DNA from: Candidatus Magasanikiibacteriota bacterium
GTDB taxonomy: Bacteria > Patescibacteriota > Patescibacteriia > Magasanikbacterales > UBA922
NCBI GenBank assembly: GCA_041665025.1
Contig: JBAYJP010000001.1
Location: forward strand, 16,207 to 80,206
Length of the DNA stretch: 64,000 nt
Direction: 5' to 3'
Shown here: piece by piece, positions 9,323 through 57,795 of the stretch
Layout: the number at the start of each line of letters is the position of its first letter
Numbering within the stretch: position 1 is the first letter of the stretch
Made by a program: the position numbers and the translations under genes
Notes under the pieces: generated by a model
What the model was told of the DNA's origin: nothing
Seen by the model: the letters and a program-made list of their open reading frames with translations, nothing else
Databases searched by the model: none

Positions 9323-10552
9323 ATGATTTTTACCGGTTTTCAACCTAACGCGACCAAAAAGGATCTGAGTATTGCCCTCTCCTTTTTATTATTACCGTGG
9401 AAATGGTTTCTTTTACGCAAAGGCATAGCTACTTTACAGGTAGAGGAATGGCTACAAAAATATTTTTTAGTTCCGTATGCAGTAACATTTGATAGCGGAC
9501 GCACCGCACTTCAAAAATCTCTTGAGGCGTTAGAGATAGAAAAAGGAGATGAGGTCCTGGTACAGGCTTATACGTGTATGGTAGTAAGTAATGCCATACA
9601 TTTTGCCATGGGCACCCCCGTATATGTAGATATATTGCATGACTATACAATGGATCCAGAAGATTTAAAAAATAAAATTACCTCAAAAAGTAAAGTACTT
9701 ATTATTCAACATACTTTTGGCCAGGCGGCCCATGTAGACAAATTAGTTGCCATTGCACAGGAGCACGGACTCAAGATAATTGAGGATTGTGCTCATTCGT
9801 TGGGAGCTACCTATAAAGGAAAACTTACGGGGACTTTTGGTGATATTGGCATGTTTAGTTTTGGTAGTGATAAAGTGATTTCATGTATACGCGGTGGCGC
9901 TACAATAACATCTGACTCCTCATTGGGTGAAAAATTACAAAAGCTTTCTGACGGGCTTCCTCTGACAAGACGTTTGAAAGTTATCCAGTATTTGATTACT
10001 ATTCCATTTTTCGCCGCTGGGAAGCCTCTATATAAATTTGGCGGAAAGATTTTTCTTGCTGTATGCAAGTATTTAAATGTCACGGGACGCATCATGTACG
10101 AAAAAGAGAAGAGGGGAGAGAGTGTAAAAGGTTATCCCTCAAAATTGCCTCAGGCACTTGCTGTCTTGCTTTTATCTCAATTGGATAGTTTAAAATCTTT
10201 CAATGAACATAGGAAAAGTATTGCGCATATCTTTTTTTCGCATGTTATGCATAAAAAAGTTCTTCCTGAGGATTATCCTGAACATATATTTTTACGGTTT
10301 CCTTTACAAGTTTCTAACATCAAAGAGTTGCACCGTGAGTCAAAAAGACGAGGAATTTTGCTCGGCAATTGGTATGATACCGTGATTGCACCAAAAGATT
10401 GCGATATTTCAAAGTCTGGTTATATTTTGGGGTCATGCCCGAGAGCTGAAAAGATGTCCTCAAATTCAATTAATTTGCCCACAGATATCCACATAACAGA
10501 AAAAGATGCTCTATATATCTCAAATTTTATAAATACGTATGCCCGTTTTTGA
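9323..10552 (+). CDS. DegT/DnrJ/EryC1/StrS-family PLP-dependent sugar aminotransferase
   Basis: FDSGRTAL...GDEV...YTC...VDI pattern typical of the DegT family; start uncertain. Confidence 0.75.
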   Translation: MIFTGFQPNATKKDLSIALSFLLLPWKWFLLRKGIATLQVEEWLQKYFLVPYAVTFDSGRTALQKSLEALEIEKGDEVLVQAYTCMVVSNAIHFAMGTPVYVDILHDYTMDPEDLKNKITSKSKVLIIQHTFGQAAHVDKLVAIAQEHGLKIIEDCAHSLGATYKGKLTGTFGDIGMFSFGSDKVISCIRGGATITSDSSLGEKLQKLSDGLPLTRRLKVIQYLITIPFFAAGKPLYKFGGKIFLAVCKYLNVTGRIMYEKEKRGESVKGYPSKLPQALAVLLLSQLDSLKSFNEHRKSIAHIFFSHVMHKKVLPEDYPEHIFLRFPLQVSNIKELHRESKRRGILLGNWYDTVIAPKDCDISKSGYILGSCPRAEKMSSNSINLPTDIHITEKDALYISNFINTYARF

Positions 10553-11531
10553 AATTAAAAAACAAGATGAATGGCCAGAGCAAGAAGAGTTTCTTCAATC
10601 ATACACCTATGGTGAATTTTTAATTTCCCTTAGTAAAAAAGTTTTGAGATTGTGCATACAAGTGGGCGAGGAGAAGATATATGTACAAGCAGTTGAACAT
10701 ATTATGTTTCGTTTCATTACATTTTTGTATATACCGCGCATGTATATCGCGCCTATTTTTTTTGAGAAACTTGTACAATATGCAAAAAAAAAGAATTATA
10801 CATTTATTAGGTTAGAGCCTTCCCAACAAATGAATCTTTCTTCAGTAAAATTACAAGAAGTAAAAAATAGACAGCCTCAATACACATGGATTTTAGATAT
10901 TAATAAGACTACTGAACAGTTATTGCAAGAAATGCATTCTAAAACAAGATATAATATTCGCGTGGCAGAAAAAAAAGAAGTATACATCGACCACGTCAAA
11001 AATTTAGATGTATTTTTAAAACTCAATGAGACAACCACAGAACGGAATAAATTTATAAGCCATCCTAGGCAGTATATTGAAAAATTGCTCTCCCTCTCAG
11101 ACGTATTTCAATTTAATGCATACATTGATAAGACTCCCGTAGCATCTGCAATAATTTTGCGTCATCAAAAATCATTTATATATCTGCTTGGTGCTTCATC
11201 AAATGAATATAGAAATGCCATGTCCCCTTATCTATTGCATTGGGATATTATTAATACAGGCAAAAAAGAGGGAATTGATACCTATGATTTTTGGGGTATT
11301 GCTCCTCCTGCAAAAAAGGAAAATGTAGGCACTGTTTGCTTTCACACCTATTGTTTTGAGGACATACACCCACTATCTGGTGTTTCACGTTTTAAAGCAG
11401 GTTGGGGAGGAGCAGTGAAATCTTATCCTCAAGCCTATGAAATTATAATTAATCCGCTGACATATATAATCGTCAAATTTATATATGCACTTCGTGGAAG
11501 AAATAGGATAGTAGGACATCCTGATAATTAG
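10539..11531 (+). CDS. FemAB-family peptidoglycan peptidyltransferase (paralog 1)
   Basis: FemABX-like motifs (YDFWGIAPP, FKAGWGG). Confidence 0.7.
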   Translation: MPVFEIKKQDEWPEQEEFLQSYTYGEFLISLSKKVLRLCIQVGEEKIYVQAVEHIMFRFITFLYIPRMYIAPIFFEKLVQYAKKKNYTFIRLEPSQQMNLSSVKLQEVKNRQPQYTWILDINKTTEQLLQEMHSKTRYNIRVAEKKEVYIDHVKNLDVFLKLNETTTERNKFISHPRQYIEKLLSLSDVFQFNAYIDKTPVASAIILRHQKSFIYLLGASSNEYRNAMSPYLLHWDIINTGKKEGIDTYDFWGIAPPAKKENVGTVCFHTYCFEDIHPLSGVSRFKAGWGGAVKSYPQAYEIIINPLTYIIVKFIYALRGRNRIVGHPDN

Positions 11532-13687: not shown

Positions 13688-14141
13688 AGTGTGTCGCACA
13701 ATATATCTTATGCGACACTATATACTATAGAACCCAGTCCACCTGGGTTTCCCTAAGGTGTTGACTCTAGAAATTAACCAATATAGTTGCATAGATTAAA
13801 ACCATACTTCTTATACTAGCTAAGAGAGCCTCTAGCGCAGATGTGTGGAATTATAGTATCTAATTACAAACTCGGGTATATATGATGCCCTGCTAATATT
13901 TTCCGACACAACAAGTTTTTGTTTCAAAAAGGCCAGGTAATCTTGTATGACTTTTTTTAAAAAAAATTACTCCTAAGTTGTGTATTAGCTAGAAAATTTA
14001 AAATATTGTAATAGTATATCTAAAATTAATTTATAAAAAAATATAATAAAATACATGACACACAGACCATGTATTTTTTATAGTATTGTCTCCCCTGTTT
14101 TGACATTTCTAAAAATAGAAGAAATATTGTGCGACACTAGT
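13688..14141. mobile_element. MITE-like non-coding element (~455 bp, AT-rich) with ~18-bp terminal inverted repeats
   Basis: TAGTGTGTCGCACAATAT at 13688-13705 and its reverse complement ATATTGTGCGACACTAG at 14124-14141. Lies between convergent genes and has no ORF >60 aa. Confidence 0.45.
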
Positions 14142-15974: not shown

Positions 15975-17444
15975 TTATAACATGCTAAGAGCGTTCTTAA
16001 CGCGATCGAGTGTTTTTTCTTTACCAAGTGCCACAGCAATCTCGAGAGGGCCTGGGGAATTCTTTTGTCCTGAGAGTGCGACACGCATAGGCCATAAGAC
16101 ATCCCCATTTCCCCATGCCTTCTCTTTAATCCAGGGCAGGATCTGTTTTTCCAGTGTTTCCTTAGACCACTCCCCCTCTAAACTATTCAAAAATTCAAGC
16201 AATGCGATTAATTTTTCTTTTGTCTGTTCTTTGGTAGATTTTTTCCACACAAGAAGTTCTGCTTCGTAGTCTAGTGTATTGGAAAAAATGAATGTGACAT
16301 TTTCTACCAGTTCGACAAGAGTAGACGCTCTCCCCTGCTCCAGTGCAACTACATCCCGAATCCCGAATCCCGAATCCGGAATCTTAAGACTTTCTTTTTC
16401 AAAAAAAGATTTACATCTTTCCGCTAGCTCTGCAGAATCAAGACTCATAATATACTGCTTATTGTACCAATTCAATTTTTCACGATTAAACACAGCCGCA
16501 GGCTTATGTACTTTACTAAAATCAAATTCCTTTTCAAGTTCTGCCAAACTAAAAATTTCTTTTTCTCCACCAGGGTTCCAACCTAAAAATGCAATAAAAT
16601 TAATGATTGCTTCTGGTAGATAACCTTTCTGTTTAAAATCTTCAACTGATACGTCTCCATGTCGTTTACTTAATTTTTGTTTTTCTTCATTTATAAGCAT
16701 GGAAAGATGGCCGAACTGTGGCAATTCCCAACCAAACATGTTGTATAAGGTAATATGCTTAGGTGTTGAAGGCAACCATTCTTCACCACGGATAACATGG
16801 GTAACTTCCATAAGGTGGTCATCTACAACAACGGCTAAATGATAAGTTGGGAATCCATCAGCCTTAACGAGAACTTGATCATCGGCTAATTCATTCTTAA
16901 ATTCAACTTTCCCTCGTACCATGTCGTCTACGACCGTAACCCCAGTTTTTGGCATTTTCATGCGCATGATACACTTCTCCCCTGCCGTAACGCGTTTTTG
17001 AGCCTCTACAACGTCTAAATCTCGACAATGACCATCATAACCCGTAGGCATTTTATTTAATTCTTGATATTTTCTAACTTCCTCAAGACGTTCTTTACTA
17101 CAAAAACAATAATATGCATGACCTTGCTCAATGAGCTGATTAGCGTATTTTTTGTAAATATCCAAACGCTGTGATTGTATATATGGCCCTTTATCACCTT
17201 TTTGAATAACTTTTCCTTCATCATTTACATCAACGCCTTCATCAATACTAATTCCTGCCCATGTGAGTGAATTAATCATATTTTCAGTGCCACCCTCAAC
17301 AAATCGCTCCTGGTCAGTATCTTCTATACGCATCATAAAGATACCACCATTTTTTTTGGCAAATAAATAAGAATATAGAGCAGTACGAAGACCTCCTACA
17401 TGTAGAAAACCGGTTGGACTTGGGGCAAAACGTGTTTTGATCAT
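15975..17444 (-). CDS. gltX: Glutamyl-tRNA synthetase
   Basis: Class I HIGH-like motif (PSPTGFLHVGG) and KLSKR motif. Contains an in-frame (TCCCGAA)x3-4 heptamer repeat at 16354-16381. Confidence 0.9.
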   Translation of the reverse strand: MIKTRFAPSPTGFLHVGGLRTALYSYLFAKKNGGIFMMRIEDTDQERFVEGGTENMINSLTWAGISIDEGVDVNDEGKVIQKGDKGPYIQSQRLDIYKKYANQLIEQGHAYYCFCSKERLEEVRKYQELNKMPTGYDGHCRDLDVVEAQKRVTAGEKCIMRMKMPKTGVTVVDDMVRGKVEFKNELADDQVLVKADGFPTYHLAVVVDDHLMEVTHVIRGEEWLPSTPKHITLYNMFGWELPQFGHLSMLINEEKQKLSKRHGDVSVEDFKQKGYLPEAIINFIAFLGWNPGGEKEIFSLAELEKEFDFSKVHKPAAVFNREKLNWYNKQYIMSLDSAELAERCKSFFEKESLKIPDSGFGIRDVVALEQGRASTLVELVENVTFIFSNTLDYEAELLVWKKSTKEQTKEKLIALLEFLNSLEGEWSKETLEKQILPWIKEKAWGNGDVLWPMRVALSGQKNSPGPLEIAVALGKEKTLDRVKNALSML

Positions 17445-46197: not shown

Positions 46198-47217
46198 CTA
46201 TATTTCTTCCACTATTTCTTCTATTTCTTCAATTGTATTCACTCGTACCAATTTACTCCGAATCTCTTTCATTCCTTCCAACCCTTTAAAATAAAAAGCT
46301 AAATGTTTCCGCAGTCCTACTATTCCCCTTTCCCCATAGTGCTGAATTTGAAGTTGAGCATGACGTAATATCACATCTTTTCTTTCTTGCAACGAAATTA
46401 GTGATCGATGATTAGCAATCGACGATAACAACCAGGGGTTCCCCAAGGCTCCTCGTCCAATCATTACTCCATCTGCTCCGGTCGTCTCTAAACATCGCTC
46501 AATATCTTCAGGCGAAGTAATATCTCCATTCGCTATCACGGGTATTTTAACACACTTCTTCGCCTCCCCTATCATCTCCCAGTTTGCCTTTCCACTATAG
46601 CCCTGGACTTTTGTCCTTCCGTGGATCGAAAGAGCATCAACACCAGCCTGTTCTAGCTTTTGCGCAAATTCCAGTATTTCACCTTCTTTAGACCATCCAA
46701 GACGGGTTTTAACACTTATAGGAACCCCCAAATTGGCGTTTTTGAGGGCTTTTACTATCTCTACCGCCCTATTGTGGTCTTTCATAAGCGCAGCGCCAGA
46801 ATCAGCCTTTCCAGCTATTTTCGGAACAGGGCAACCCATATTGATGTCTACCCCAAATTCATCCCGAGCGGAGCGGAGCGGAGAGAAGGGTCTTTCGAAG
46901 GATTCCATTTTTGGATTAAAAAATTTCTCTGTAATAATACGAGCCGCTTCTACAATCACCTCCGGCTTACTTCCAAACAACTGTAACACAATCGACCTCT
47001 CAATTTCTTCAAACTTGCACATGTTTAATGTCTTTTCATTGCCACGCACAATCGCCTCTGCACTAACCATTTCTCTAAAAATTATAAATTCTTTATGTAT
47101 TCCTTTTTCCTTTTTCCTTAATTCTTGTACCTCTCTACATAATATCGAAAACGGCTGATCTGTATAGTCAGCCATAGGCGCGAGAGCAATGATTGGTTTG
47201 TTTTCAATCCATGTCAT
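46198..47217 (-). CDS. tRNA-dihydrouridine synthase (DusB-like)
   Basis: FMN-binding TIM barrel (LAPMADYTD, NMGCP, catalytic Cys region). Contains (GAGCG)x3 at 46866-46880. Confidence 0.8.
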   Translation of the reverse strand: MTWIENKPIIALAPMADYTDQPFSILCREVQELRKKEKGIHKEFIIFREMVSAEAIVRGNEKTLNMCKFEEIERSIVLQLFGSKPEVIVEAARIITEKFFNPKMESFERPFSPLRSARDEFGVDINMGCPVPKIAGKADSGAALMKDHNRAVEIVKALKNANLGVPISVKTRLGWSKEGEILEFAQKLEQAGVDALSIHGRTKVQGYSGKANWEMIGEAKKCVKIPVIANGDITSPEDIERCLETTGADGVMIGRGALGNPWLLSSIANHRSLISLQERKDVILRHAQLQIQHYGERGIVGLRKHLAFYFKGLEGMKEIRSKLVRVNTIEEIEEIVEEI

Positions 47218-48035
47218 ATATCAAGCGGACTTTTTATTTCTGCTAAATTATTCCTCGCCACATGCGTATAAATCTGTGTCGTTTGCAACTTCGCATGACC
47301 CAATAGTTCTTGAATATACCTGATATCTGTCCCGTTTTCAAGCAAATGAGTAGCAAAACTATGGCGCAAAGTGTGGGGAGAGACTTTTTTTCTCAAACCA
47401 GCTTTTTGCGCCGCCTGCGAGACAATTTTTTGTATTGTCGCCTCAGTCAGCCTTTCTCCTCTTCCATTGGTAAAAAGAAAGTCATCTTTATTTTTCAACC
47501 CAGCTTGGACTTCCAAAATAGATAACAATTTTCTAGGCAATACAACCAGCCTATCTTTCTTACCCTTACCTTGAAACACCCTCAACATTTTTCTATCTAT
47601 ATCAATATCACACATCTTGATATGTGTCAGTTCACTTACGCGCACTCCGGTACCATACAATAAACTGATGATACAATTATGTTTGGGGTTGGTAGTCACC
47701 TCTATCATTTTATTCACTTCTTCTTTTGATAAAACAACGGGTAAATACTTATTTTTCTTAGGTTGCTTGATATGTAAAAAAAAATTTCTTTTCCAAATCT
47801 GGCCATAATAAAAATGAAGAGCGTTGTAAGCTACTGCAACGGTACTAGAAGAAACTTTTTGTCCCAAATAATCTAAATAATTTTTAATGTCCTCGGTATT
47901 AGCTTCTCGCGGATCTTTCTGGCAAAACCGCAACAACTCTTCATTATAATGAACATAAGAATCAATAGTGCTTCGACTATAGTTACGGATCCTCAATTCT
48001 CTTTCTAAATTGGAAAAAGTATTGTTTTCCAACAT
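47214..48035 (-). CDS. Tyrosine site-specific recombinase (XerC/D / integrase family)
   Basis: R...HxLRHSFATHLL...LLGHAKLQTTQIYTHV catalytic R-H-R-Y constellation. ATGA overlap with dusB; divergent from the downstream array. Confidence 0.8.
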   Translation of the reverse strand: MLENNTFSNLERELRIRNYSRSTIDSYVHYNEELLRFCQKDPREANTEDIKNYLDYLGQKVSSSTVAVAYNALHFYYGQIWKRNFFLHIKQPKKNKYLPVVLSKEEVNKMIEVTTNPKHNCIISLLYGTGVRVSELTHIKMCDIDIDRKMLRVFQGKGKKDRLVVLPRKLLSILEVQAGLKNKDDFLFTNGRGERLTEATIQKIVSQAAQKAGLRKKVSPHTLRHSFATHLLENGTDIRYIQELLGHAKLQTTQIYTHVARNNLAEIKSPLDI

Positions 48036-48302
48036 ACTTAGTGATAAAATATCATCAACCTATACCCTACTGGGGTATAAGCAAAAATTCACAAAAATTA
48101 TAGCATAACTAAGCCTTTTATGCCAAAAGTTGGCATAAAGGTAGTTAGGCGAAATATTCCTTTTCTTTTTTGGGCTATCGCCCAATTGTTTTAAAAAATT
48201 TTAAAATTTCTTTTTCATTAATTAAAGAGGGGAAAAAGGTGTTTTCTCCGCTCCGCTACGAAAACGATTTATTTATAAGGGGAAAACTAATACAATAACC
48301 AC

Positions 48303-49964
48303 ATGAACAAAAAAATCATAAAATTATCAGTGTTTCTGCTTATCGGTCATTTTTTTATTTTCCCCGAAGCCGCCCATGCAGTAATTCCGCCGGATTTTAT
48401 TTTTAATATCGGAACACAGATAGCTCAATTCTTTTCGATAATTGCAATATTTTTTACTGCCATTCTTGGAACATTTTTTCAGTTTTTCAAGACAAGATAT
48501 TATGCACTTAAACATAAAAAAATAATTCTAAGCCTAACTATCATTGGAATTATAGCAGTATCTCTTACCTCATCTTATTTTTACGCAACATACAAACAAA
48601 AAGCTGAATATCAAAAGTGGCTCAAAGAAAGCCAACAATATAGTACAAACCAAAATACTCAAAATGCCAATTTAGATTATGATAATGACGGATTAACCGA
48701 TCTTGAAGAAACAAATTTCGGCACTGATCTTAATAATCCTGATACAGACGGCGATGGATATTCCGACGGCGAAGAAGTTAAAAATGGATATAATCCAAAC
48801 GGTCCTGGGAAATTTGGAGAAGAAGGCATAAACGAAGACGCAAATGACCAATTAAATATCGGCACTGAAAGTAACAAGAACATCGATACATCTGCTAAAA
48901 AATTTATCTCCAGTGTAAATGTAACTGATAACGCCGCAAGATTTATTAGTGAATACTACGGAAATATCGCTAACGGCAATTTAGAGCAAGCCTATGAGAT
49001 GTCTAAAAAAACTGTTAGCTTTGAGACCTTTAAGGGTTGGTATCTAAAAACATCTAAAATAACATTAGATAAATTGGTTCGAATTGATGAAAAAAAATCA
49101 TCCATAGAATTAACTTTATACGAGGACGGCACATTCACAAGATATGGCGTTTTGATGACCTTAACTTTACAAAGTGAAATACCAGTAAGAGTTGAGAAAT
49201 CGGAAGTTAAAATTTTGGCTCAAGGGTTGATTAATAATCAAAATATTTCTGTTGATGAAAATAAAACTGCCCAAGAGTATGATTTTTTTACGAAAAATGA
49301 AAACACAAACATACTTGTTACAAATCAAGATTTTAAAAATATCACAGACAGCCAGCAAAGTGATTATATTGTTTTAGACGCAAGAGAAGATATTGAATAC
49401 GAAAATGGCTATTTCCCCGGAAGTTTACATATTCGCTTTGCGGACTTAAAAGCAGGTCGTTGGATCGAATTACCAAAAGATAAGCCTGTTTATGTAATTT
49501 GTTGGTCTGGAATTCGAGGCAAAGAAGTAGCCGAATTTTTGAGAACCAAAAAAATTGTGTCTTCTTATTTGGAGAATGGCGCTAACGGCTGGGTTGAATT
49601 TGGCGGAAAATGGATCGGAGAAATCAAATTCGGGGAAAAATATACAGATCCAAAATATCAAATCGTTTTTAGTACGGATGATGTTAAAAAGAAAGTAACA
49701 GAGGGTGTGGTTCTTGTTGATACGAGAGAACCGTATAAATTCAATCAGTCAAATATAGCAGGAAGCGTCAATATTCCAATTATGTACACTCCAACTATCA
49801 ATCTTGAAAAGACATTTAGCCAAGTTCCAGTGAATAGCAAGGTTATTACAGTATGCGACGGATACGTTAATTGTTTTGATGCTAAAATTACGGGTGTTGA
49901 ACTGGAAAGACGTGGACATCAATTTTTAGGCAGATATAACAAACCTTGGGAATATGAAAAATAA
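48303..49964 (+). CDS. Secreted protein with Ca-binding D-x-D-x-DG repeats and two C-terminal rhodanese domains
   Basis: N-terminal TM/signal, DYDNDGLTDLEE...DTDGDGYSDGEE, rhodanese active-site loops CWSGIRG and CDGYVNC. Confidence 0.6.
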   Translation: MNKKIIKLSVFLLIGHFFIFPEAAHAVIPPDFIFNIGTQIAQFFSIIAIFFTAILGTFFQFFKTRYYALKHKKIILSLTIIGIIAVSLTSSYFYATYKQKAEYQKWLKESQQYSTNQNTQNANLDYDNDGLTDLEETNFGTDLNNPDTDGDGYSDGEEVKNGYNPNGPGKFGEEGINEDANDQLNIGTESNKNIDTSAKKFISSVNVTDNAARFISEYYGNIANGNLEQAYEMSKKTVSFETFKGWYLKTSKITLDKLVRIDEKKSSIELTLYEDGTFTRYGVLMTLTLQSEIPVRVEKSEVKILAQGLINNQNISVDENKTAQEYDFFTKNENTNILVTNQDFKNITDSQQSDYIVLDAREDIEYENGYFPGSLHIRFADLKAGRWIELPKDKPVYVICWSGIRGKEVAEFLRTKKIVSSYLENGANGWVEFGGKWIGEIKFGEKYTDPKYQIVFSTDDVKKKVTEGVVLVDTREPYKFNQSNIAGSVNIPIMYTPTINLEKTFSQVPVNSKVITVCDGYVNCFDAKITGVELERRGHQFLGRYNKPWEYEK

Positions 49965-51996
49965 CGTCATTCAATCTCAAGAGATTGACCAAAATAAAAA
50001 ATATTTAGGTAATAAGACGCTTAATCTACAAAAGCTCGTAGATTGGGGTTTCCATGTTCCAAAATTTATTGCAATACCTTCGCACATCTCTAGCAATTTA
50101 TACTCAGATGAAAATCTGAAAAAAGAAATAGCCCAAGAAGCAATAAGAATTTTGCAATGCAAAAAATATGCAGTGAGATCAAGCGCTTTAATTGAAGACG
50201 GTGAGAACAGGTCATTCGCCGGCCAATTCAACACTAAACTAAACTTATCCAGCAACGAGCTAATTGGAGGAATAGGCGAGGTGTTAAAGCAGGCAAACGA
50301 TTTTCTTCACGATGAACTTGATAAATTTTCAATAATTATTCAGGAATATATTGCACCCGATATTTCGGGAGTTACTTTTACGCGAAATCCACATGGTAGT
50401 AGAGAAATGATAATTGAATACGGATTTTGCGAAGGAGAAAAAATAGTAAGCGGAGAAATAAAACCAGAAAAAACCTCTTTTTATTGGAACGAACAAGACA
50501 TTAAATTGCCCAAACAATTTTTAACAAACCGAGTAATTAAAAAATTCAAAGAAATCGAAAACAAAAGTAAATTTCCGCAAGACATTGAGTGGTGTATTAA
50601 AGACAACAAATTTTATTTGCTACAAACAAGGCCAATAACAACAATTACCAGCAAACAATACGAGCAAATAAATTTTTTAGAAAAACAATTATCGGAAAGA
50701 GAAGAATATTTTTTTGAAAAAACAGAAATTTCAGAAATTGCACCACGACCGACAGAATTTACTCTAAGTCTTTTGAAGACTATTTACTCTCAAAATGGAC
50801 CAGTAAGCAGGGTTTATAAAAAGTACGGCGTTAATTTTACCGATACAAACTTTTTGAAAATTATAGGAAATGAGCTTTTCGTAGATAAAGAAAGAGAAAT
50901 CCAAGGATTGCTTCCATGTTATAGTTATTTGCAAAATCAAAATTTTGTTCCCAAATTCAGCTACTATTCCCAAATGATTCCAACGATAAAAAATCTTTTC
51001 TTTCTAAATAAAATTAGAACGAATGGCTACGAGAAAATATTTCAAGATTTAAAAACAAGAATTGAAACAACTAATCAAGGCAAAAATTATCAAACAGCGT
51101 TAAAAGTTTTTTTAGAGGATTATAAATTAATTTTTGAAACCAACCTCTTATCAGGCTTAGCTATAAAAAAACTAAATTCTCTGCTTAAAAATGAAGTCGT
51201 AAAATTACCAGATATTTTAAATGAAAGCAGTGTTTTTATTGATTTAAATAAATATAAAGTCTCATCACCTCAAAATTTAAAGGGTAATTCTTTAGAAATT
51301 GCTGATGAATCAAATTTTTCAGCTACTGAAAAAACTGAGAGGCAATCAAGCGACAAAGTATCGCAATGGTGGAAAAAAATATCCGATTTCAAGAAAAAAA
51401 TACTTCAAGACAAAATTAAGGAAGCTATAATCTATAATCGTTTAAGAGAATTAGGGAGGTGTTTGACGATCAAAAACATAAACGCAATAAGGAACTTTTT
51501 ATTAAGTTATGCGAAAAATCAAGGATTTAACGACTTACAGAATATTTATTTTACCAGTATCAATGAAGTTATTAATGATCGGGCTGATAAAATAGTTTGT
51601 AAAAAAAGAAAAAATATTTACGACCAATACAATGATTATAAGCTGCCAAACTCAATTACTTCATCATTTATCCAAAAGAGAACAGGAATTTTAGGCGTTT
51701 CCGCAGGATTAACGCAAGGTATTTTGCAAAATCACGAATACCTAGATTCGGAAAAATCAGATGACTCAAAAATTATTTTGTATACTGAAATATTATCGCC
51801 GAACTTAACAAAATATTTTGACAGGATTTCAGGAATTGTTTCAGAAAATGGAGGTTTATTATCGCATTTAGCAATCGTAGCTCGTGAAAATAACATCCCA
51901 GTTATAACTGGATTTTCATTATCAAATAGTATTTTAAAATTAGGCAATTCCGTGCAAATCGACGGTAGTAATGGTAAAATAGAAAAAATACAATAA
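49954..51996 (+). CDS. PEP-utilising-enzyme family phosphotransferase (PpsA-type ATP-grasp N-domain + C-terminal phosphohistidine swivel domain; rifampin-phosphotransferase-like architecture)
   Basis: SSALIEDGENRSFAGQFNT near the N-terminus and GGLLSHLAIVARENNIPVITG at the C-terminus; no TIM-barrel PEP domain. Confidence 0.6.
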   Translation: MKNNVIQSQEIDQNKKYLGNKTLNLQKLVDWGFHVPKFIAIPSHISSNLYSDENLKKEIAQEAIRILQCKKYAVRSSALIEDGENRSFAGQFNTKLNLSSNELIGGIGEVLKQANDFLHDELDKFSIIIQEYIAPDISGVTFTRNPHGSREMIIEYGFCEGEKIVSGEIKPEKTSFYWNEQDIKLPKQFLTNRVIKKFKEIENKSKFPQDIEWCIKDNKFYLLQTRPITTITSKQYEQINFLEKQLSEREEYFFEKTEISEIAPRPTEFTLSLLKTIYSQNGPVSRVYKKYGVNFTDTNFLKIIGNELFVDKEREIQGLLPCYSYLQNQNFVPKFSYYSQMIPTIKNLFFLNKIRTNGYEKIFQDLKTRIETTNQGKNYQTALKVFLEDYKLIFETNLLSGLAIKKLNSLLKNEVVKLPDILNESSVFIDLNKYKVSSPQNLKGNSLEIADESNFSATEKTERQSSDKVSQWWKKISDFKKKILQDKIKEAIIYNRLRELGRCLTIKNINAIRNFLLSYAKNQGFNDLQNIYFTSINEVINDRADKIVCKKRKNIYDQYNDYKLPNSITSSFIQKRTGILGVSAGLTQGILQNHEYLDSEKSDDSKIILYTEILSPNLTKYFDRISGIVSENGGLLSHLAIVARENNIPVITGFSLSNSILKLGNSVQIDGSNGKIEKIQ

Positions 51997-52119
51997 GGTG
52001 TTTTGGGCTACGGGCATTCACCCCTTTAATTCCCCTCTGCCCTTCGCCCAAAACGGAAAAAGAAATTTGAAAATTTTTTAAAACAACCAACTATCATCGG
52101 AAAAGAAAAGGAATACATC

Positions 52120-52221
52120 AGCTAACACGGCATATCTGGTTACGGCTTTTATACAAAAGCCTCCATCCATATTTGCCTTCGCTACGCTACGGCAAACATC
52201 AGATATGCCGATACGTTAGAC
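52120..52221 (+). repeat. attC-like imperfect palindromic intergenic repeat (site 1)
   Basis: 5' AGCTAAC-a-CGGCATATCTG ... CAGATATGCCG-atac-GTTAGAC 3'. The GTTAGAC end matches GTTRRRY, with bulged bases and internal hairpins. Confidence 0.35.
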
Positions 52222-52284
52222 GAAATAAATTATTTTTTCCTGTCCGATTTTTCAATTTTAATGGAAGGGGGTGAATTTTTGTGA

Positions 52285-53355
52285 TTGTTGACGAGGGGTA
52301 ATAATGGTATAAATAAACTTATGACAGAAAATAACTTTTCTCGGCCTACATTTTTAAAACCTGAGATAAAACTTGAAGCTGGTTACACCGATCCGGAAAA
52401 TGATGAAAAACATTTTTACCATGGAAATTTTGTAGTTGTGGCAGATCTAAAAAATATACCAAAAGAAATACGTGAAAAAATTCCTGGCGGATATATCTTA
52501 AAACAATATCAATCTGAAGAATACTCACCCAATTGGAATGAACTATTTGAAGCGGACAAAGAAGTAAATACAAATACAGCAGAAAAAAAAGGAACATGGG
52601 TGATTATCGACGCATTTGAAGACGCCTTTAACAAATTTGGTAGACGGCCGACTGTCAATGAAGTTCTTACTCTAATTTCAGACGACAAAAAAAGCGAAAT
52701 GGCTATCGATGAAAATTTTATCGTTCAAACACTAAAAAAATACTCTTTGGAAACAAAGGCTCGAAAACTTAAAAAACGCTATGAAGAAATAAAAAACGTT
52801 TTTTCAGATGAATTACCAAATATAATATTACCAACGCAATTTATTATTGGTGCTGAAGAAAACCGACAACACCCGGATCGCGATGGAGCAAAACGACTTT
52901 ACGAATTACAACCAAAAATCAATGCTTTAAAGTTACGCGGTACAAGGCCGGTACATGAATATCTCCATACTGGAGGCAATCCTGGAAAAAATTTTCTATA
53001 CGATAGCCCTCACGTACCAATACCAGAAAACATTATTAACATCGTAAAAATGTGGGCAAAACAGATAAAAGAAACCTTTCCAAAACAATGTGCGCAAATA
53101 AAAGAGGAACTTGAAAAATTTATTGAACTGGCACGTCCAATCCCAGAAAAAATGAATGAGATACCACACGATATGGTTCATCCTGTGAATGTTGGATTTA
53201 CAGCTGATGGCATTAGAATATTTGATATAAATTTAGTATTACCTAATTTGGATAAAGACGATAAACGGCGTAAAACTCTTTTTAATCCGGACATTTGGCT
53301 TGCTCGGTATAATCGCTTGTTAGATATTTGGAAAATAGTTTACGACGAATTGTAA
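52285..53355 (+). CDS. Hypothetical protein with kinase-like (APH/choline-kinase) catalytic-loop signature
   Basis: HDMVHPVNVGFTADGIRIFDINLV resembles the HGDxHPGN...IDxE Brenner/DFG-like region. Confidence 0.35.
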   Translation: MLTRGNNGINKLMTENNFSRPTFLKPEIKLEAGYTDPENDEKHFYHGNFVVVADLKNIPKEIREKIPGGYILKQYQSEEYSPNWNELFEADKEVNTNTAEKKGTWVIIDAFEDAFNKFGRRPTVNEVLTLISDDKKSEMAIDENFIVQTLKKYSLETKARKLKKRYEEIKNVFSDELPNIILPTQFIIGAEENRQHPDRDGAKRLYELQPKINALKLRGTRPVHEYLHTGGNPGKNFLYDSPHVPIPENIINIVKMWAKQIKETFPKQCAQIKEELEKFIELARPIPEKMNEIPHDMVHPVNVGFTADGIRIFDINLVLPNLDKDDKRRKTLFNPDIWLARYNRLLDIWKIVYDEL

Positions 53356-53460
53356 ACCACGGAGTAGGCGCAATTCACCCCTGCCCCTCTTGCTCCCCAC
53401 CAACGAAAAAATTCCCCCCCTACATTTGATAAAATCGGACAGAAAAAAATAATTTACATC

Positions 53461-53540
53461 GTACAACACCGAGTATCTGGTTTCGCTTCGCTTCACCCAT
53501 ATTGCTATCGCAACATCAGATACTCGGATATTGTGCTTAT
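53461..53540 (+). repeat. attC-like imperfect palindromic intergenic repeat (site 2)
   Basis: GTACAAC-ACCGAGTATCTGG ... CAGATACTCGG-atatt-GTGC; shares a central TTCGCTTCGCTTCACCCATATTGCTATCGCAACATC with site 4. Confidence 0.35.
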
Positions 53541-53560
53541 TTATCTTTTAAAATATTCTT

Positions 53561-54073
53561 ATGAAAACATTACTAATATCGATGATGGTCATCTCAGTAT
53601 TGATTCTAAACGGATGTACTAAAGAACGGCCTCAACCAAATTCTCTCAACGAAAAATCGACAATTAACGAAGTATCACCCACTCCAAATATTACTCAAGA
53701 AAAGAAGATGGCTGATTTTACGACAAGCTATATCCCGGACAGCTGGGTTATCGAAGAAAATTTTTTCTACAGTCCTGAAATGTATAATGCGCGAGAAGGT
53801 GGTCCCTATAGTTTGAACATTAATATAAACGAAAAATTTTCTTCTATAGACAATTATCTTAAAGATAAGAGCAATTGCGTTACAGATAAGACAGAATTTA
53901 AAATAAACAATTACCCAGCCGTCCGGTTTACGGATTCTTGCGCCTATGGGAAGCCTAAAATGACTCTTATGCAAATAAACGAGAATTTGGTTGAGGCTTT
54001 TAGCTATTCTTTTTCTGATGAATCAAAAGCAATAGTCAAAATATTGGAAACATTGGATATAAAAAATAAATAA
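53561..54073 (+). CDS. Hypothetical lipoprotein
   Basis: Signal peptide with lipobox (LNGC). Confidence 0.4.
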   Translation: MKTLLISMMVISVLILNGCTKERPQPNSLNEKSTINEVSPTPNITQEKKMADFTTSYIPDSWVIEENFFYSPEMYNAREGGPYSLNININEKFSSIDNYLKDKSNCVTDKTEFKINNYPAVRFTDSCAYGKPKMTLMQINENLVEAFSYSFSDESKAIVKILETLDIKNK

Positions 54074-54154
54074 GCACAACAGCGTATAACACGCTATATC
54101 CAAAATTTACTACGCTACGCTTTAGTAAACTTCGGATATAGCGATACGTTATGT
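54074..54154 (+). repeat. attC-like imperfect palindromic intergenic repeat (site 3)
   Basis: GCACAAC-ag-CGTAT-aacac-GCTATATCC ... GGATATAGC-g-ATACG-TTATGT. Confidence 0.35.
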
Positions 54155-54246
54155 GCCATAATAAAAAACCATTTATGTTTGACTTCTTAAAATTATTGTG
54201 GTAATTTCTATCTAAGATACTTTTATTTATTTTTAACATAAAATCT

Positions 54247-54504
54247 ATGGGCGAATTCAATTTAGAGGCAGAAGCTGCCGCTGCAGCAGCACGCACAGAT
54301 AGAGGAGTGCAAGAAAATGTATTTCGAGGATTACCGGAAGTACAACTTTCTTCTTTTACTCCCGAAATGGCTGCTGCATTAAGAAGCATGGATACCGAGA
54401 ATCCCGTACTAGAAAATGCAGAATTACAAGCTTATGTTGATACGCTTACTAAAGCCCAGCGCGACCAGCTCCAATCACAGGCTAGCAATGTAGACCCAGA
54501 ATAA
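54247..54504 (+). CDS. Small acidic Ala-rich hypothetical protein
   Basis: ORF with a hairpin terminator downstream (54568-54606). Confidence 0.3.
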   Translation: MGEFNLEAEAAAAAARTDRGVQENVFRGLPEVQLSSFTPEMAAALRSMDTENPVLENAELQAYVDTLTKAQRDQLQSQASNVDPE

Positions 54505-54752
54505 ATTACCACAACAATTTTAAGTAATGGTTTTTTATTACGTCACATAACAACCGATATCAGGTTCAAAAAATAGTGCTTTTCAATTTTAGTGGAAGCA
54601 CTATTTTTTTCTCCCATATGCCGGTACTTGAATTGTAAGTCTAAAGCGTTTACAATGAATGGTAGTGAAGTCAAAGAGTGTGCTAAAACAATGGCGCCAC
54701 TTCTGATATCGGCGAACATTGCACAAAATAAAAATTTAATTATTTTGCTACC

Positions 54753-55490
54753 ATGAAATTCAAAGAAGGATACAAATATACAAACCTCACCGGATACATA
54801 AATATTTTTTCCAACCCTCAATGGTATTTGGATACACAATCTGAACTCAAGGAATTTTTTTATGATTACGATGGTAATAAGGAAAACAAATCGCAAGAAT
54901 GGCTCGAGAAAAGAAACGAATTTGTAAAAATGGTTTGTGAACTTTTAGAAGCAGACCAAATTGCTCTTGGTGATTCTGGAATAAACTGGGATAAGGATCG
55001 TTCGCCAATAGATACAATTGTTATACACCATACCAGTACGCCATCAGACATCCCCATTGCAGCAATTAATGCACTAGGATTGATTCGTTTGTATGCACCA
55101 AATTACAGCAAAAAAGATGAAGAGCAATTTGGTCAACCAATTTGGTCAAACCATTTTTACAAAAACAGACAAACATTCATTGCTTATCATTACATAATCA
55201 GACAGGACGGGTCTTTTGAACATATACTACAAGATAACCAAACAGGTTGGCATTGTGGAAATTGGGATTATAACTGCCGAAGTATTGCGATTTGTTTTCT
55301 TGATGATCTAAAAGAAAAAAGACCGACTGAAAAAGCACTTCGAACAGCAAATGAAATCATAAAAAAATATCCAAATTGTAATATCCTAGGTCATAGAGAA
55401 ATTAAACCCACAACGACTTGCCCAGGTAATCTGTTTCTAGAGAAAGATGGTTGGAAAAACGACGTATTTCTGAAACCGCAAAATAATTAA
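54753..55490 (+). CDS. N-acetylmuramoyl-L-alanine amidase (amidase_2 / PGRP fold)
   Basis: IVIHHTS, AYHYII, GWHCGNW, ILGHREI...TCPG zinc-amidase motifs. Confidence 0.7.
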   Translation: MKFKEGYKYTNLTGYINIFSNPQWYLDTQSELKEFFYDYDGNKENKSQEWLEKRNEFVKMVCELLEADQIALGDSGINWDKDRSPIDTIVIHHTSTPSDIPIAAINALGLIRLYAPNYSKKDEEQFGQPIWSNHFYKNRQTFIAYHYIIRQDGSFEHILQDNQTGWHCGNWDYNCRSIAICFLDDLKEKRPTEKALRTANEIIKKYPNCNILGHREIKPTTTCPGNLFLEKDGWKNDVFLKPQNN

Positions 55491-55500
55491 ATTTTTACAT

Positions 55501-55579
55501 CGCACAACAGCGTGTATGCGGTTCCGCTTCGCTCCACCCATATTGCTAACGCAACATCGTATATACGCGGACGTTATAC
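55501..55579 (+). repeat. attC-like imperfect palindromic intergenic repeat (site 4)
   Basis: CGCACAAC-ag-CGTGTAT ... ATATACG-cggac-GTTATAC; the central part is ~85% identical to site 2. Confidence 0.35.
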
Positions 55580-55663
55580 GAAATAAATTTTTTCTTTTTA
55601 TTTTTCTCAAATGACTTACAATAGACATTATGGAAATAATGTTGATAAGACTAAACGATTAAA

Positions 55664-55909
55664 ATGCCAAATAACAAAAATACAAACTTTAGAAAGCTAT
55701 ACTCACATTTAGAATCAACTATAATAATATTTTTGTGGATTTCTATTTTCTTTTGGATCTTTTATGAAGGTTCGATTAATGCGGGTATTTGGGGAAAATG
55801 GAAAGGCTTAGAGATCATATTTCCACTCATCATTTCTTTCTTCATCTCATCAATTATAATATTGCCTCTGTATTTAATAAAAATATTTTTCAAAAGCAAG
55901 AAAAAATAA
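55664..55909 (+). CDS. Small membrane protein
   Basis: Two TM helices. Confidence 0.3.
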   Translation: MPNNKNTNFRKLYSHLESTIIIFLWISIFFWIFYEGSINAGIWGKWKGLEIIFPLIISFFISSIIILPLYLIKIFFKSKKK

Positions 55910-55996
55910 CAAGCTTTCAAAGGGGAATAAATTTGATTTATTTAAAAAGAAAAAACTTATATAATACCTACACCTTTTAGTTAATAAGAGATCAAT

Positions 55997-56281
55997 ATGA
56001 AAACGAAAAAAATAAAAATCACTACGGGTGTGGTTCATAAAGTTCCCAAGGATTTAGAGAAGGTTTTAAGCTCCAATCCTGATTTGCTTACCAAATGGAA
56101 TGGCCTAACCCCTCTATCTCGCAATGAGTGGATTTGTTGGGTCACTATTGTGAAAAAGCCAGAAACTCGTAATAAGCATATTGAACGCTTATCTGAAGAA
56201 CTCCTTGAGGGGGCAAAAAGACCTTGTTGTTGGCCAGGTTGTCCTCATCGCAGACCAAATGCGAAAAAATGGTTTAAGTAA
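55997..56281 (+). CDS. YdeI/OmpD-associated (DUF1905-like) family small protein
   Basis: WICWVTIVKKPETRNKHIERL resembles the AKKPETR hallmark. Confidence 0.45.
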   Translation: MKTKKIKITTGVVHKVPKDLEKVLSSNPDLLTKWNGLTPLSRNEWICWVTIVKKPETRNKHIERLSEELLEGAKRPCCWPGCPHRRPNAKKWFK

Positions 56282-56382
56282 CACACTTTTTTTCTTTCCC
56301 TTCGTTCCAAAAAAACTTGGTATATTTCTAATGTTAAAATGTATATAATTCTAAATAATATATAAGGTTTTTAAAATTCTTA

Positions 56383-56868
56383 ATGAGATATCATAATATG
56401 TCTAACATGTTCAAGCCCATCAAGGCAAAAAATGTAAAAGAATACTTAGCATCTATACCAGAAGAACGTAAAGAGACAATTTTGTTTCTGCACGATTTTA
56501 TTCAGAAAGTCTCACCAAAACTAAAAAGCCATTTTGCATATAATATGCTTGGGTATGGCTCGTTTGCCTATAAAAATTATAAAAGAGATGTGATCGAGTG
56601 GCCCATAGTGGCACTTGCCAGCCAGAAAAATTATATGAGTGTGTATGTATGTGCCGTGGAAGATGGTGAGTATCTGGCAGAAAAGTACAAGGATAAACTA
56701 GGCAAGGTAAGCGTGGGCAAGAGTTGTATTCGTTTCAAAAAACTGGATGACTTACATTTAGGGGCGTTAAAAAAAATTTTACAAAAATCAGCGAAACATC
56801 CAGGTCTTGTTGGTGCTGAGAAATATCGGAAAACCTCTGTAAAAAAACAATTGCATATAAAATCGTAA
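56383..56868 (+). CDS. DUF1801 (YdhG-like) family protein
   Basis: VKEYLASIPEERKETILFLHDFI...YGSF pattern. Confidence 0.4.
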   Translation: MRYHNMSNMFKPIKAKNVKEYLASIPEERKETILFLHDFIQKVSPKLKSHFAYNMLGYGSFAYKNYKRDVIEWPIVALASQKNYMSVYVCAVEDGEYLAEKYKDKLGKVSVGKSCIRFKKLDDLHLGALKKILQKSAKHPGLVGAEKYRKTSVKKQLHIKS

Positions 56869-56880
56869 CCTTTTGTAGGT

Positions 56881-57555
56881 ATGCCAACAAAAATTTTAAC
56901 TCATGTACTTCTTGATGCCCTAACTATCGTGTACATATTTTTTGGGTTGGAATACTTTACTCATTTTACACAAAATAATCTGGTACTTGTATTTTATATT
57001 GTTGCTTTATTGCATTTGATTGCGCTTGGAAGCGGACTTTATTCAAAAGTTCGCACATACGGCTCAGGAGGTTTACTTGGCGAACAAAAAAATAACTGGA
57101 CACATACTCTTCAATCTCTTGTCACTATCTTGGCATTTGCCAGTTCTTTGTGGCTCATATTTCCCGGTGTAGCAATTACCAAAATAATCAGTCACAACAT
57201 GCCTGGACTCGGCATACTTATTGTTTTATTTCTGTTATTCCCCTGGGTTTTGCTTGCGATTGGTATGTCACATGAACAAAAAAAATGGAAAACGCCTGCA
57301 CGTGAATATATGGTGACACAACTTCTGCCTTCATGTGCTACGTTGCTATTTTTCGCAACAAGCGAAACACTCATAAAAGCCACGGCACAAAATAATGCGA
57401 CCTCGCTCGATGATGTCGGTTTTGGAATTATTATGCTTGCTATTACCTACTTACCACTTCGATTATTACTTATGCTCAAACAGCCTATCAAAAAAATAGA
57501 TTTTGTTTCAGCGATTATCACATTTGGTTTGCTTGCCTACGCCATGGTTGCCTGA
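56881..57555 (+). CDS. Hypothetical polytopic membrane protein
   Basis: Six or more TM helices. Confidence 0.4.
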   Translation: MPTKILTHVLLDALTIVYIFFGLEYFTHFTQNNLVLVFYIVALLHLIALGSGLYSKVRTYGSGGLLGEQKNNWTHTLQSLVTILAFASSLWLIFPGVAITKIISHNMPGLGILIVLFLLFPWVLLAIGMSHEQKKWKTPAREYMVTQLLPSCATLLFFATSETLIKATAQNNATSLDDVGFGIIMLAITYLPLRLLLMLKQPIKKIDFVSAIITFGLLAYAMVA

Positions 57556-57589: not shown

Positions 57590-57795
57590 ATTTACTGATA
57601 CACTCCATCTAGTTACAACTCACCACTATATCTGCTGGAAGAGGGTGCAAGTCCCTCACTGTGCCGCAACGGTATTCTCCGATTTAAATTCGGGGTCAGT
57701 CCGATCTTCAGATATGGTTTATTGCGTGGTTGCCAAAGGCAACGTCACGCAGTAATCCCGAGCAGGAACTTGTATTTTTTGAAACGTACATCAAA
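57590..57795 (+). ncRNA. Candidate cobalamin (B12) riboswitch
   Basis: GGAAGAGGGUGCAAGUCCCUCACUGU core resembles the conserved GGUGnnAnUCC...CCACUGU cobalamin-aptamer elements, and a degenerate AGUCCGA..CAGA B12-box-like stretch follows. Positioned in the 5' leader of DUF4430 genes. Confidence 0.4.

Follow-up and report, generated by a model that had tools for sequence, protein, structure and literature searches.

A probable chromosomal integron-like gene-capture platform with a Xer-type recombinase in Candidatus Magasanikbacteria

In characterised integrons, the additional domain of the integrase IntI contacts extrahelical bases and is needed for attC recombination, and current definitions of integron recombination rest on the recognition, by this IntI-specific domain, of extrahelical bases in the folded attC site. 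IntI has been discussed as a Xer-type enzyme with a domain adapted to single-strand recombination (Escudero et al. 2016, PMC4792948). In archaea, attC clusters have been reported in 75 genomes together with only six IntIs, all with the additional domain, and most of the archaeal arrays, including those of Nanoarchaeota, are clusters of attC sites lacking integron integrases (CALINs) (Ghaly et al. 2022, PMC9668308). Xer-like recombinases of candidate phyla have been classed as presumptive Xer substitutes (Smyshlyaev et al. 2021, PMC8138268). We found no report of a domain-less Xer-type recombinase linked to attC-like arrays in candidate phyla radiation (CPR) bacteria or DPANN archaea in the searchable full-text literature, most subscription journals lying outside that search. 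Here we describe an array of attC-like sites and gene cassettes adjoining the gene for such a recombinase in a 64-kb stretch (hereafter the window; positions 16,207 to 80,206 of the 282,871-bp contig JBAYJP010000001.1, assembly GCA_041665025.1) from Candidatus Magasanikbacteria, a CPR lineage. The organisation of the locus and of its relatives suggests that it is an active, integron-like platform for gene capture on the chromosome, distinct from a canonical integron, a reading to which we assign a probability of roughly 80%.

The tyrosine recombinase gene, the 267-bp intergenic region beside it and the same-strand open reading frames (ORFs) that follow are arranged as stated in an earlier note on this DNA, which a model had written from the letters alone (Table 1). 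An attI-like core lies ∼108 bp upstream of the recombinase start, is present in one copy only in the window, and by its two inverted arms and 6-bp spacer is built like a dif site. The sequence ...AAGTTGGCATAAAGGTA|GTTRRRY is common to the window and to those Magasanikbacteria loci that reach the junction (recombinases 49-80% identical), and everything to the right of GGTA|GTT is unrelated among them. These comparisons place the crossover to within ∼3 nt; it would fall between G48144 and T48145, the boundary between spacer and right arm. As in integrons, an attI-like site thus adjoins the recombinase gene and insertion is at G|TT. A short palindromic site around attI (S0, 48095-48158) is matched weakly, at 19 bits, by the covariance model described below.

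Table 1. Recombinase, leader, attC-like sites and cassettes of the window (window coordinates; scores in bits are those of the covariance model)
Feature	Position	Strand	Description
Tyrosine recombinase, 273 aa	47214..48035	-	Xer/XerA-type; motifs R..K..HxxR..H..Y complete; without IntI-specific insertion
Palindrome TATACCCTACTGGGGTATAA	48061..48080		TATACCC-N4-GGGTATA; between recombinase start codon and promoter; same position in L001-L009
Promoter-like element	48097..48126	-	TTGGCA-18-TGnTATAAT, aimed at recombinase; 11/12 matches, extended -10; inside conserved left part of attI
attI-like core	48130..48153	+	TTGGCATAA-AGGTAG-TTAGGCGAA; two 9-bp inverted arms (7/9), 6-bp spacer
Cassette 1, two genes	48145..52215	+	Rhodanese/TSP3, 48303-49964; PPDK_N/PEP-utilizer (RPH-like), 49954-51996; terminal inverted repeats ∼70 nt or more
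S1	52120..52221	+	R'' AGCTAAC; L stem CGGCATATCTG/CAGATATGCCG; R' GTTAGAC; 62 bits
Cassette 2	52216..53530	+	ORF 52285-53355, 356 aa, no Pfam match; terminal inverted repeats 37-80 nt
S2	53461..53536	+	R'' GTACAAC; perfect 11-bp stem; R' ATTGTGC; 41 bits
Cassette 3	53531..54148	+	Lipoprotein-like ORF 53561-54073
S3	54074..54154	+	Outer R'' GCACAAC matches cassette start; inner GTATAAC at the canonical 1 nt from stem
Cassette 4	54149..54718	+	85-aa ORF 54247-54504; terminal inverted repeats 26 nt + 22 nt
S4	54545..54724	+	180 nt, large variable loop; stem 10/11; degenerate R' ATTGCAC
Cassette 5	54719..55573	+	Amidase_2 (N-acetylmuramoyl-L-alanine amidase) ORF 54753-55490; inverted repeat 20 nt, 100%
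S5	55502..55579	+	R'' GCACAAC; stem 9/11; R' GTTATAC; 59 bits
Cassette 6	55574..55968	+	81-aa membrane ORF 55664-55909; 3' inverted repeat 55931-55960 kept, R'' box and hairpin lost

The platform is evidently active, real and non-random. In most related metagenome-assembled genomes the contig stops 0-650 bp from the recombinase start on the array side, in one case exactly at ...AGGTAGTTA. One orthologous recombinase sequence (P0015) is found on at least 24 contigs from many samples: the 10 contigs shown all run for kilobases on the far side and stop 49-820 bp into the array side, and beyond GGTAGTTA their identical attI-left DNA leads into one of at least three first cassettes (continuations GGCGAAATTTG..., a NUDIX cassette; AGTGAAATATG..., another cassette; and T...). 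Scanning metagenomes with the attI motif yielded 18 contigs with at least 13 different continuations. Moreover, contigs L107 and L110, whose attI-left flanks have clearly diverged and the first of which lacks an adjacent recombinase, share 1123 nt and 1560 nt of cassettes (100% and 99.9% identical) that are placed differently with respect to attI. Variable arrays and sharing between platforms are what mobile integron cassettes display; together, the turnover at the junction and the shared cassettes rule out static regulatory repeats and show site-specific gain, loss and exchange of cassettes. None of the outcomes that the earlier note had named as refuting arose. The note had stated that conserved gene order among relatives would make the repeats regulatory; array content proves not to be conserved, and the repeats are not fixed regulatory elements. 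None of the window cassette genes was found in related loci. Among the cargo of other arrays are an R.Pab1 restriction system and proteins of the Fic/DOC, glyoxalase/bleomycin-resistance, HD and NUDIX types; taken with the amidase and rhodanese of the window, the predicted cargo is accessory in type. Viral relatives were limited to three distant partial matches.

Some units carry no gene at all. GC-rich units of ∼100 nt with cassette-like ends ("empty cassettes", e.g., GTTGTGCAAAATCGCTCGCGCGA...TCGCGCGAGCGACATCGCACAAC) lie just after attI or between cassettes in L001, L004, L006, L013, L015, L016, L106 and L109-L111, and the recombinase sides of L109 and L110 are identical, the difference between the two being one unit of ∼105 nt.

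The ends of the cassettes bear a second signature of insertion. When the 45-nt flanks right of GTT were matched to the reverse complements of the 45-nt flanks left of ..AAC, the right flank of a site found its best partner in the left flank of the next site in 6/6 consecutive pairs. The scores (18, 29, 18, 22, 21 and 18) all exceed the 99th percentile of the background (12; mean 7), and every alignment starts at GTT/AAC. Each cassette start is therefore complementary to its own R'', as in integrons. After insertion, whatever follows G|TT is part of the next cassette, so each unit opens with the reverse complement of its own 3' terminus, the arrangement expected if circular cassettes were inserted at G|TT. 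The same end complementarity is present in L003, L005, L007 and L012. Bottom-strand hairpins are predicted to be far more stable at the circularised junction than at the array junction for cassettes 1 (-75.9 vs -38.6 kcal/mol), 2 (-59.5 vs -22.7 kcal/mol) and 4 (-62.7 vs -39.0 kcal/mol), and modestly so for cassette 3 (-41.1 vs -34.9 kcal/mol), with cassette 5 not following the pattern (-33.8 vs -36.0 kcal/mol). In all, six site-bounded units with seven ORFs occupy 48145-55968, with a decayed array end near 55956-55968. There are no sites beyond 55.97 kb in the window and the last three ORFs (55997-57555; YdeI/OmdA-like, DUF1801 and a membrane protein) are unbounded, so the count of about 10 cassettes given previously was too high.

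S1 and its arms are ∼84% identical over 250 nt to a site of L003 that closes a different cassette. The arms and leader of cassette 1 recur at 84-91% identity (window 51992-52236 vs L003:4669-4912, and 48094-48286 vs L011:97-289), and the genes inside the recurring arms differ from those of the window, being a restriction-modification pair in L003. The pattern suggests that genes have been swapped within a reusable palindromic frame.

All four of the palindromes that had been reported, at 52.1, 53.5, 54.1 and 55.5 kb and running from ..AAC to GTT.., are real, and a fifth, S4, had been missed. The site layout is ACATC-RYYYAAC (R''), A, an 11-nt L'' arm, a variable loop, an 11-nt L' arm, RWAC and GTTRRRY-GAAAT (R'). 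Whole sites measure 54-196 nt, mostly through variation of the loop (about 20-130 nt), and since loop lengths vary among sites they were aligned without gaps from trimmed arms. AAC and GTT are near-invariant, with A or G at the first GTT position, and L pairing is 98%, so that the sites have the R''-L''...L'-R' organisation of integrons. In nine of the 11 L-stem pairs both partners vary, and the L arms differ between sites yet stay complementary; pairing within a site is weaker at the outer R-box positions, as the integron model predicts, since on that model these bases come from the next cassette. The earlier note had also described bulges within the stems, which we do not find: the inner stems are perfect or nearly perfect helices of 11 bp, uninterrupted in 27/27 aligned sites and with no extrahelical base in the L box, and the sole constant asymmetry is in the spacer between the boxes, 1 nt on one side and 2-4 nt on the other. 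The bottom strand is the more stable in 26/27 sites, with 63 G.T wobbles against 21 on the top strand. Some loops, such as that of S4, contain terminator-like hairpins.

The sites are far more frequent than expected by chance and are tied to the recombinase. A geometric scan of the window and 80 loci (1.17 Mb in total) that demanded at least 10/11 L-stem pairs returned 26 matches, compared to 1-4 in shuffled sequence, nearly all of them upstream of the recombinase and in one orientation; three were in the window, all inside the array. Loosening the rule to 9/11 stem pairs gave no excess over shuffles. A covariance model trained on 20 trimmed sites, with S2 outside the training set, matched the window only within the array, S2 included, using a model whose default filters miss sites with very long loops and whose unfiltered run truncates them. 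No Rfam family matched the sites at gathering or E-value thresholds.

By its domains and model scores, the recombinase is of Xer/XerA type and is not an IntI. Its reading frame is intact and contains two Pfam domains, Phage_int_SAM_4 and Phage_integrase, with no insertion. It passes the XerA model NF040815 of NCBIfam (259 bits, cut-off 220) and fails those for the integron integrase (TIGR02249; 234 bits, cut-off 265, with the match split in two stretches), XerD (218 bits, cut-off about 330) and XerC (214 bits, cut-off about 335). Among solved structures, VchIntIA (2a3v; 6.5e-51) and Thermoplasma XerA (9e-51) match it equally well, VchIntIA residues 185-238 being skipped. The insertion of ∼45 aa that marks IntI is present in our alignment in the true IntIs (L072, L077 and L078, from the same locus scan) and is absent from the window protein, in agreement with the earlier note, which saw no obvious IntI-specific insertion; none of the Magasanikbacteria orthologues or DPANN array-linked proteins carries it either, nor do two Flavobacteriales proteins. 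The linkage to dusB that the same note had pointed out holds in the window and in L001 only, and other lineages have different downstream genes. In the P0015 lineage (L081-L090) these encode a 23S rRNA intervening-sequence protein, YebC/TACO1 and the Holliday-junction resolvase RuvC, with no dusB.

Arrays of this kind extend beyond the Magasanikbacteria. The same site geometry and orientation are found upstream of the recombinase in DPANN archaea (L033, L035, L044, L048, L054, L057, L060, L061 and L065), where the array-linked recombinases show 39-44% identity, the loci have a dif-like attI (...CGCNTTAA-TAGKTG|TTRRRYG), and the start of the first cassette matches the R'' of the first site at 9/9 positions in 6/7 loci. 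A neighbour-joining tree of 79 recombinases groups the DPANN array-linked proteins with 100% bootstrap support, the DPANN XerA genes directly beside a canonical dif (e.g., AGTTCGCATAA-TGTATA-TTAGGCGAACT) with 69%, the Magasanikbacteria recombinases with 64% and the true IntIs with 88%. None of the 20 dif-adjacent DPANN loci carries attC-like sites. In many DPANN genomes a canonical 11-6-11 dif lies ∼30-300 bp upstream of xerA (L017, L024, L025, L029, L034, L036, L037 and L049; by eye only in L018, L020, L023, L026 and L027), as with bacterial XerS and XerH. In Parvicellaceae (Flavobacteriales), four 70-nt model matches are co-oriented downstream of a domain-less recombinase (L052:12950-15422, recombinase at 10001-10771); the layout there is inverted relative to the CPR and DPANN arrays. 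We tentatively entertain, at somewhat less than even odds, that genuine hairpin-cassette platforms are run by domain-less Xer-like integrases forming a widespread clade across CPR, DPANN and some Bacteroidota.

A plausible mechanism can be drawn by analogy with integrons. The bottom strand of the palindrome would fold into a hairpin that mimics a two-arm core site, its R box and L box split by the asymmetric bubble, the choice of the bottom strand being suggested by its stability and wobble pairs. The recombinase would then swap one strand between this hairpin and double-stranded attI, or another hairpin, cutting at AA|C on the bottom strand, which corresponds to G|TT on the top, and replication would resolve the intermediate.

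Cassettes could instead move as double-stranded circles by two-strand exchange between duplex core sites (L' arm, spacer and R' arm), in the manner of Xer. Such a pathway would fit the usual action of Xer-type enzymes on duplex DNA, the ordinary duplex core of attI, the absence of both extrahelical bases and the IntI domain, and the double-strand activity that IntI itself keeps (Escudero et al. 2016, PMC4792948). The 6 nt before G|TT differ, however, being AGGTAG in attI and, for example, GATACG in attC-like sites, so there is no spacer homology and ordinary two-strand duplex exchange is argued against; L'' and L' covary while their sequence differs between sites, indicating pairing rather than sequence recognition, and both wobbles and stability consistently favor one strand. 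We consider duplex exchange improbable. A canonical integron, with IntI and classical attC, would explain the layout, the conserved AAC/GTT of the R''/R' boxes and a match to VchIntIA as good as that to XerA, but it is refuted on its defining domain, the IntI-specific insertion, with the TIGR02249 score below cut-off and an L box devoid of extrahelical bases pointing the same way, and is very improbable. The least probable reading is that of static intergenic palindromes (terminators, repetitive extragenic palindrome (REP)-like or regulatory elements) that do not recombine. Sites lying 3' of ORFs and the terminator-like hairpins in loops such as that of S4 would be expected of these, but cassettes differ at a fixed junction despite an identical recombinase, identical cassettes sit in diverged contexts, complementarity spans the unit and not the gap, and the sites are tied to one recombinase family in one orientation. 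Two further candidates were rejected: the inverted repeats do not bound invertible, shufflon-like segments, as the population variants are replacements and not inversions, and units of a transposon or miniature inverted-repeat transposable element have neither a transposase nor varied targets, insertion always being at one site beside the recombinase.

A rival that differs from the favored reading in the identity of the enzyme, and not in cassette movement, is that the recombinase is the sole chromosome-dimer resolvase, acting at a dif in the terminus, and that attI is a dif-derived decoy by xer at which Xer-exploiting elements, similar to integrative mobile elements exploiting Xer (IMEX) or to dif modules, pile up. 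A dif candidate, the near-perfect palindrome GTGTCGCACAA-TATATC-TTATGCGACAC, is indeed present at 13691-13718, in an intergenic gap at a switch to convergent genes and at the cumulative GC-skew maximum, and the 13.7-kb region is probably the replication terminus; a lone half-site, TTGTGCGACAC, lies at 14127-14137. The dif arms agree at 8/11 positions with the flanked attC R box (ACATCGCACAA) and at 8/11 with the starts of cassettes (TTAGGCGAAAT); one enzyme could plausibly bind dif and the cassette sites alike. The passing XerA equivalog score and missing IntI domain, the dif architecture of the attI core, the lack of a second recombinase or paralogue in the 64-kb window, and a conservation above that of the neighbours (80% identity to the L001 protein, compared to 57-70% for dusB and adjacent genes) also speak for double duty, and candidate-phyla Xer-like recombinases are treated as presumptive Xer substitutes in PMC8138268. 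Against it, the array-associated and dif-adjacent recombinases of DPANN form separate clades, which argues for a dedicated enzyme, and the array sits not at the chromosomal dif, where IMEX integrate, but at a dedicated site that lies 34 kb from the candidate dif. We regard double duty as possible and rather unlikely.

Several observations weigh against the favored reading of an active integron-like platform. Adjacency alone designates the window recombinase as the presumptive catalyst of cassette movement, and the attI motif, promoter region and array also occur without an adjoining recombinase on metagenome contigs (L095, L097/L100/L107 and L101). Because the IntI additional domain is absent, the mechanism cannot be identical to that of integrons. 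The L-stem covariation is partly circular because the selection rule demanded at least 10/11 pairs, and the cassette-end complementarity reaches 20-80 nt beyond the R box, much farther than in classical cassettes, of which such long terminal inverted repeats are not a feature. Part of the window array may be frozen, given that S4 and S5 show partial degeneration and cassette 6 no longer has a site of its own. Finally, the split of the array-linked groups plus IntI from the dif-linked groups has only 45% support, and the deeper order is unresolved by neighbour joining.

Further features lie near the array. The palindrome at 48061-48080 may serve as an operator controlling the recombinase gene. 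Three AT-rich stretches that resemble one another and contain -35/-10-like hexamers (TTGATT...TATAAT) are found at 48257-48296, 55926-55965 and 56310-56349, upstream of cassette 1 and of two ORFs just past the array, and may be internal promoters. Farther along, an adenosylcobalamin (AdoCbl; cobalamin) riboswitch-like element at 57612-57754 precedes lipoprotein and 569-aa genes; its score of 43.5 bits (E 1.9e-5) is below the Rfam gathering threshold of 50.

If the integron-like reading is right, a natural platform with a plain Xer-type integrase and with sites free of extrahelical bases would show that the IntI domain is no prerequisite for cassette capture. Were the wider clade of domain-less integrases to run such platforms, structure-specific cassette recombination would need neither the IntI additional domain nor extrahelical bases, the platforms could represent an ancestral form of the integron (a "proto-integron") or an independent reinvention, and they could supply the missing integrase for many archaeal and bacterial CALINs. 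Tools requiring the IntI domain would miss the integrase and call the arrays orphan. The empty cassettes and the identical arms around different genes bear on how cassettes are made. Conjugation and other classical routes of exchange are thought to be poorly represented in small CPR and DPANN genomes, and the platform would be a route of gene exchange for these bacteria and archaea. It would also offer a concrete intermediate for the Xer-to-IntI transition discussed by Escudero et al. 2016.

Of the known systems, the dif modules (pdif; PMC7399989) of Acinetobacter plasmids resemble the array in being small gene modules that lie between Xer-type sites and whose movement is attributed to host Xer; they differ in having full 28-bp duplex XerC/XerD sites of alternating orientation on plasmids, and are not known to have hairpin sites, an attI by a recombinase or an ordered same-strand array. 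The one-recombinase Xer/dif systems (archaeal XerA, XerH/difH and XerS/difSL) have in common with the window a Xer-type enzyme, a core of 9-11-bp inverted arms about a 6-bp spacer, as in attI, and a site beside the recombinase gene, as for XerS, XerH and many DPANN XerA loci. That a Xer enzyme is able to use a folded single-stranded site is known from the IMEX CTX-phi, which integrates as a folded single strand. In contrast to Xer/dif and IMEX, small gene cassettes are found here in an ordered array, not phages or islands, and not at the chromosomal dif, and the DPANN array-linked enzymes are a clade apart from dif-linked XerA. CALINs are what tools requiring the IntI domain would call these arrays, but the window array is not an orphan, adjoined as it is by a conserved recombinase and attI; there is no accession overlap with the archaeal integron supplement of PMC9668308.

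The closest relatives are integrons, including sedentary chromosomal ones and those of archaea (PMC9668308), with which the window has in common a divergent tyrosine recombinase by attI, crossover at G|TT, same-strand cassettes ending in an R''/L''/L'/R' imperfect palindrome with an unpaired spacer and variable loop, a favored bottom strand, similar sites within an array, accessory cargo and cassette turnover. The integron-like reading of the earlier note therefore stands for layout and function, on the attI, the complementary cassette ends, the replacement at G|TT and the shared cassettes, and does not extend to a canonical integron, the IntI insertion and extrahelical bases being absent. The differences are that the window recombinase lacks the IntI additional domain and fails the integron-integrase model, that its sites have L stems that are perfect 11-bp helices without extrahelical bases and a fixed spacer bubble of 1 nt vs 3-4 nt, that the R box extends into conserved ACATC/GAAAT flanks resembling dif arms, and that CPR cassettes have terminal inverted repeats of 20-80 nt, the hosts being CPR bacteria and DPANN archaea. 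By function the platform is thus an integron as judged from its sequence, and by membership it falls outside integrons on the IntI domain and the extrahelical bases and within the XerA protein model.

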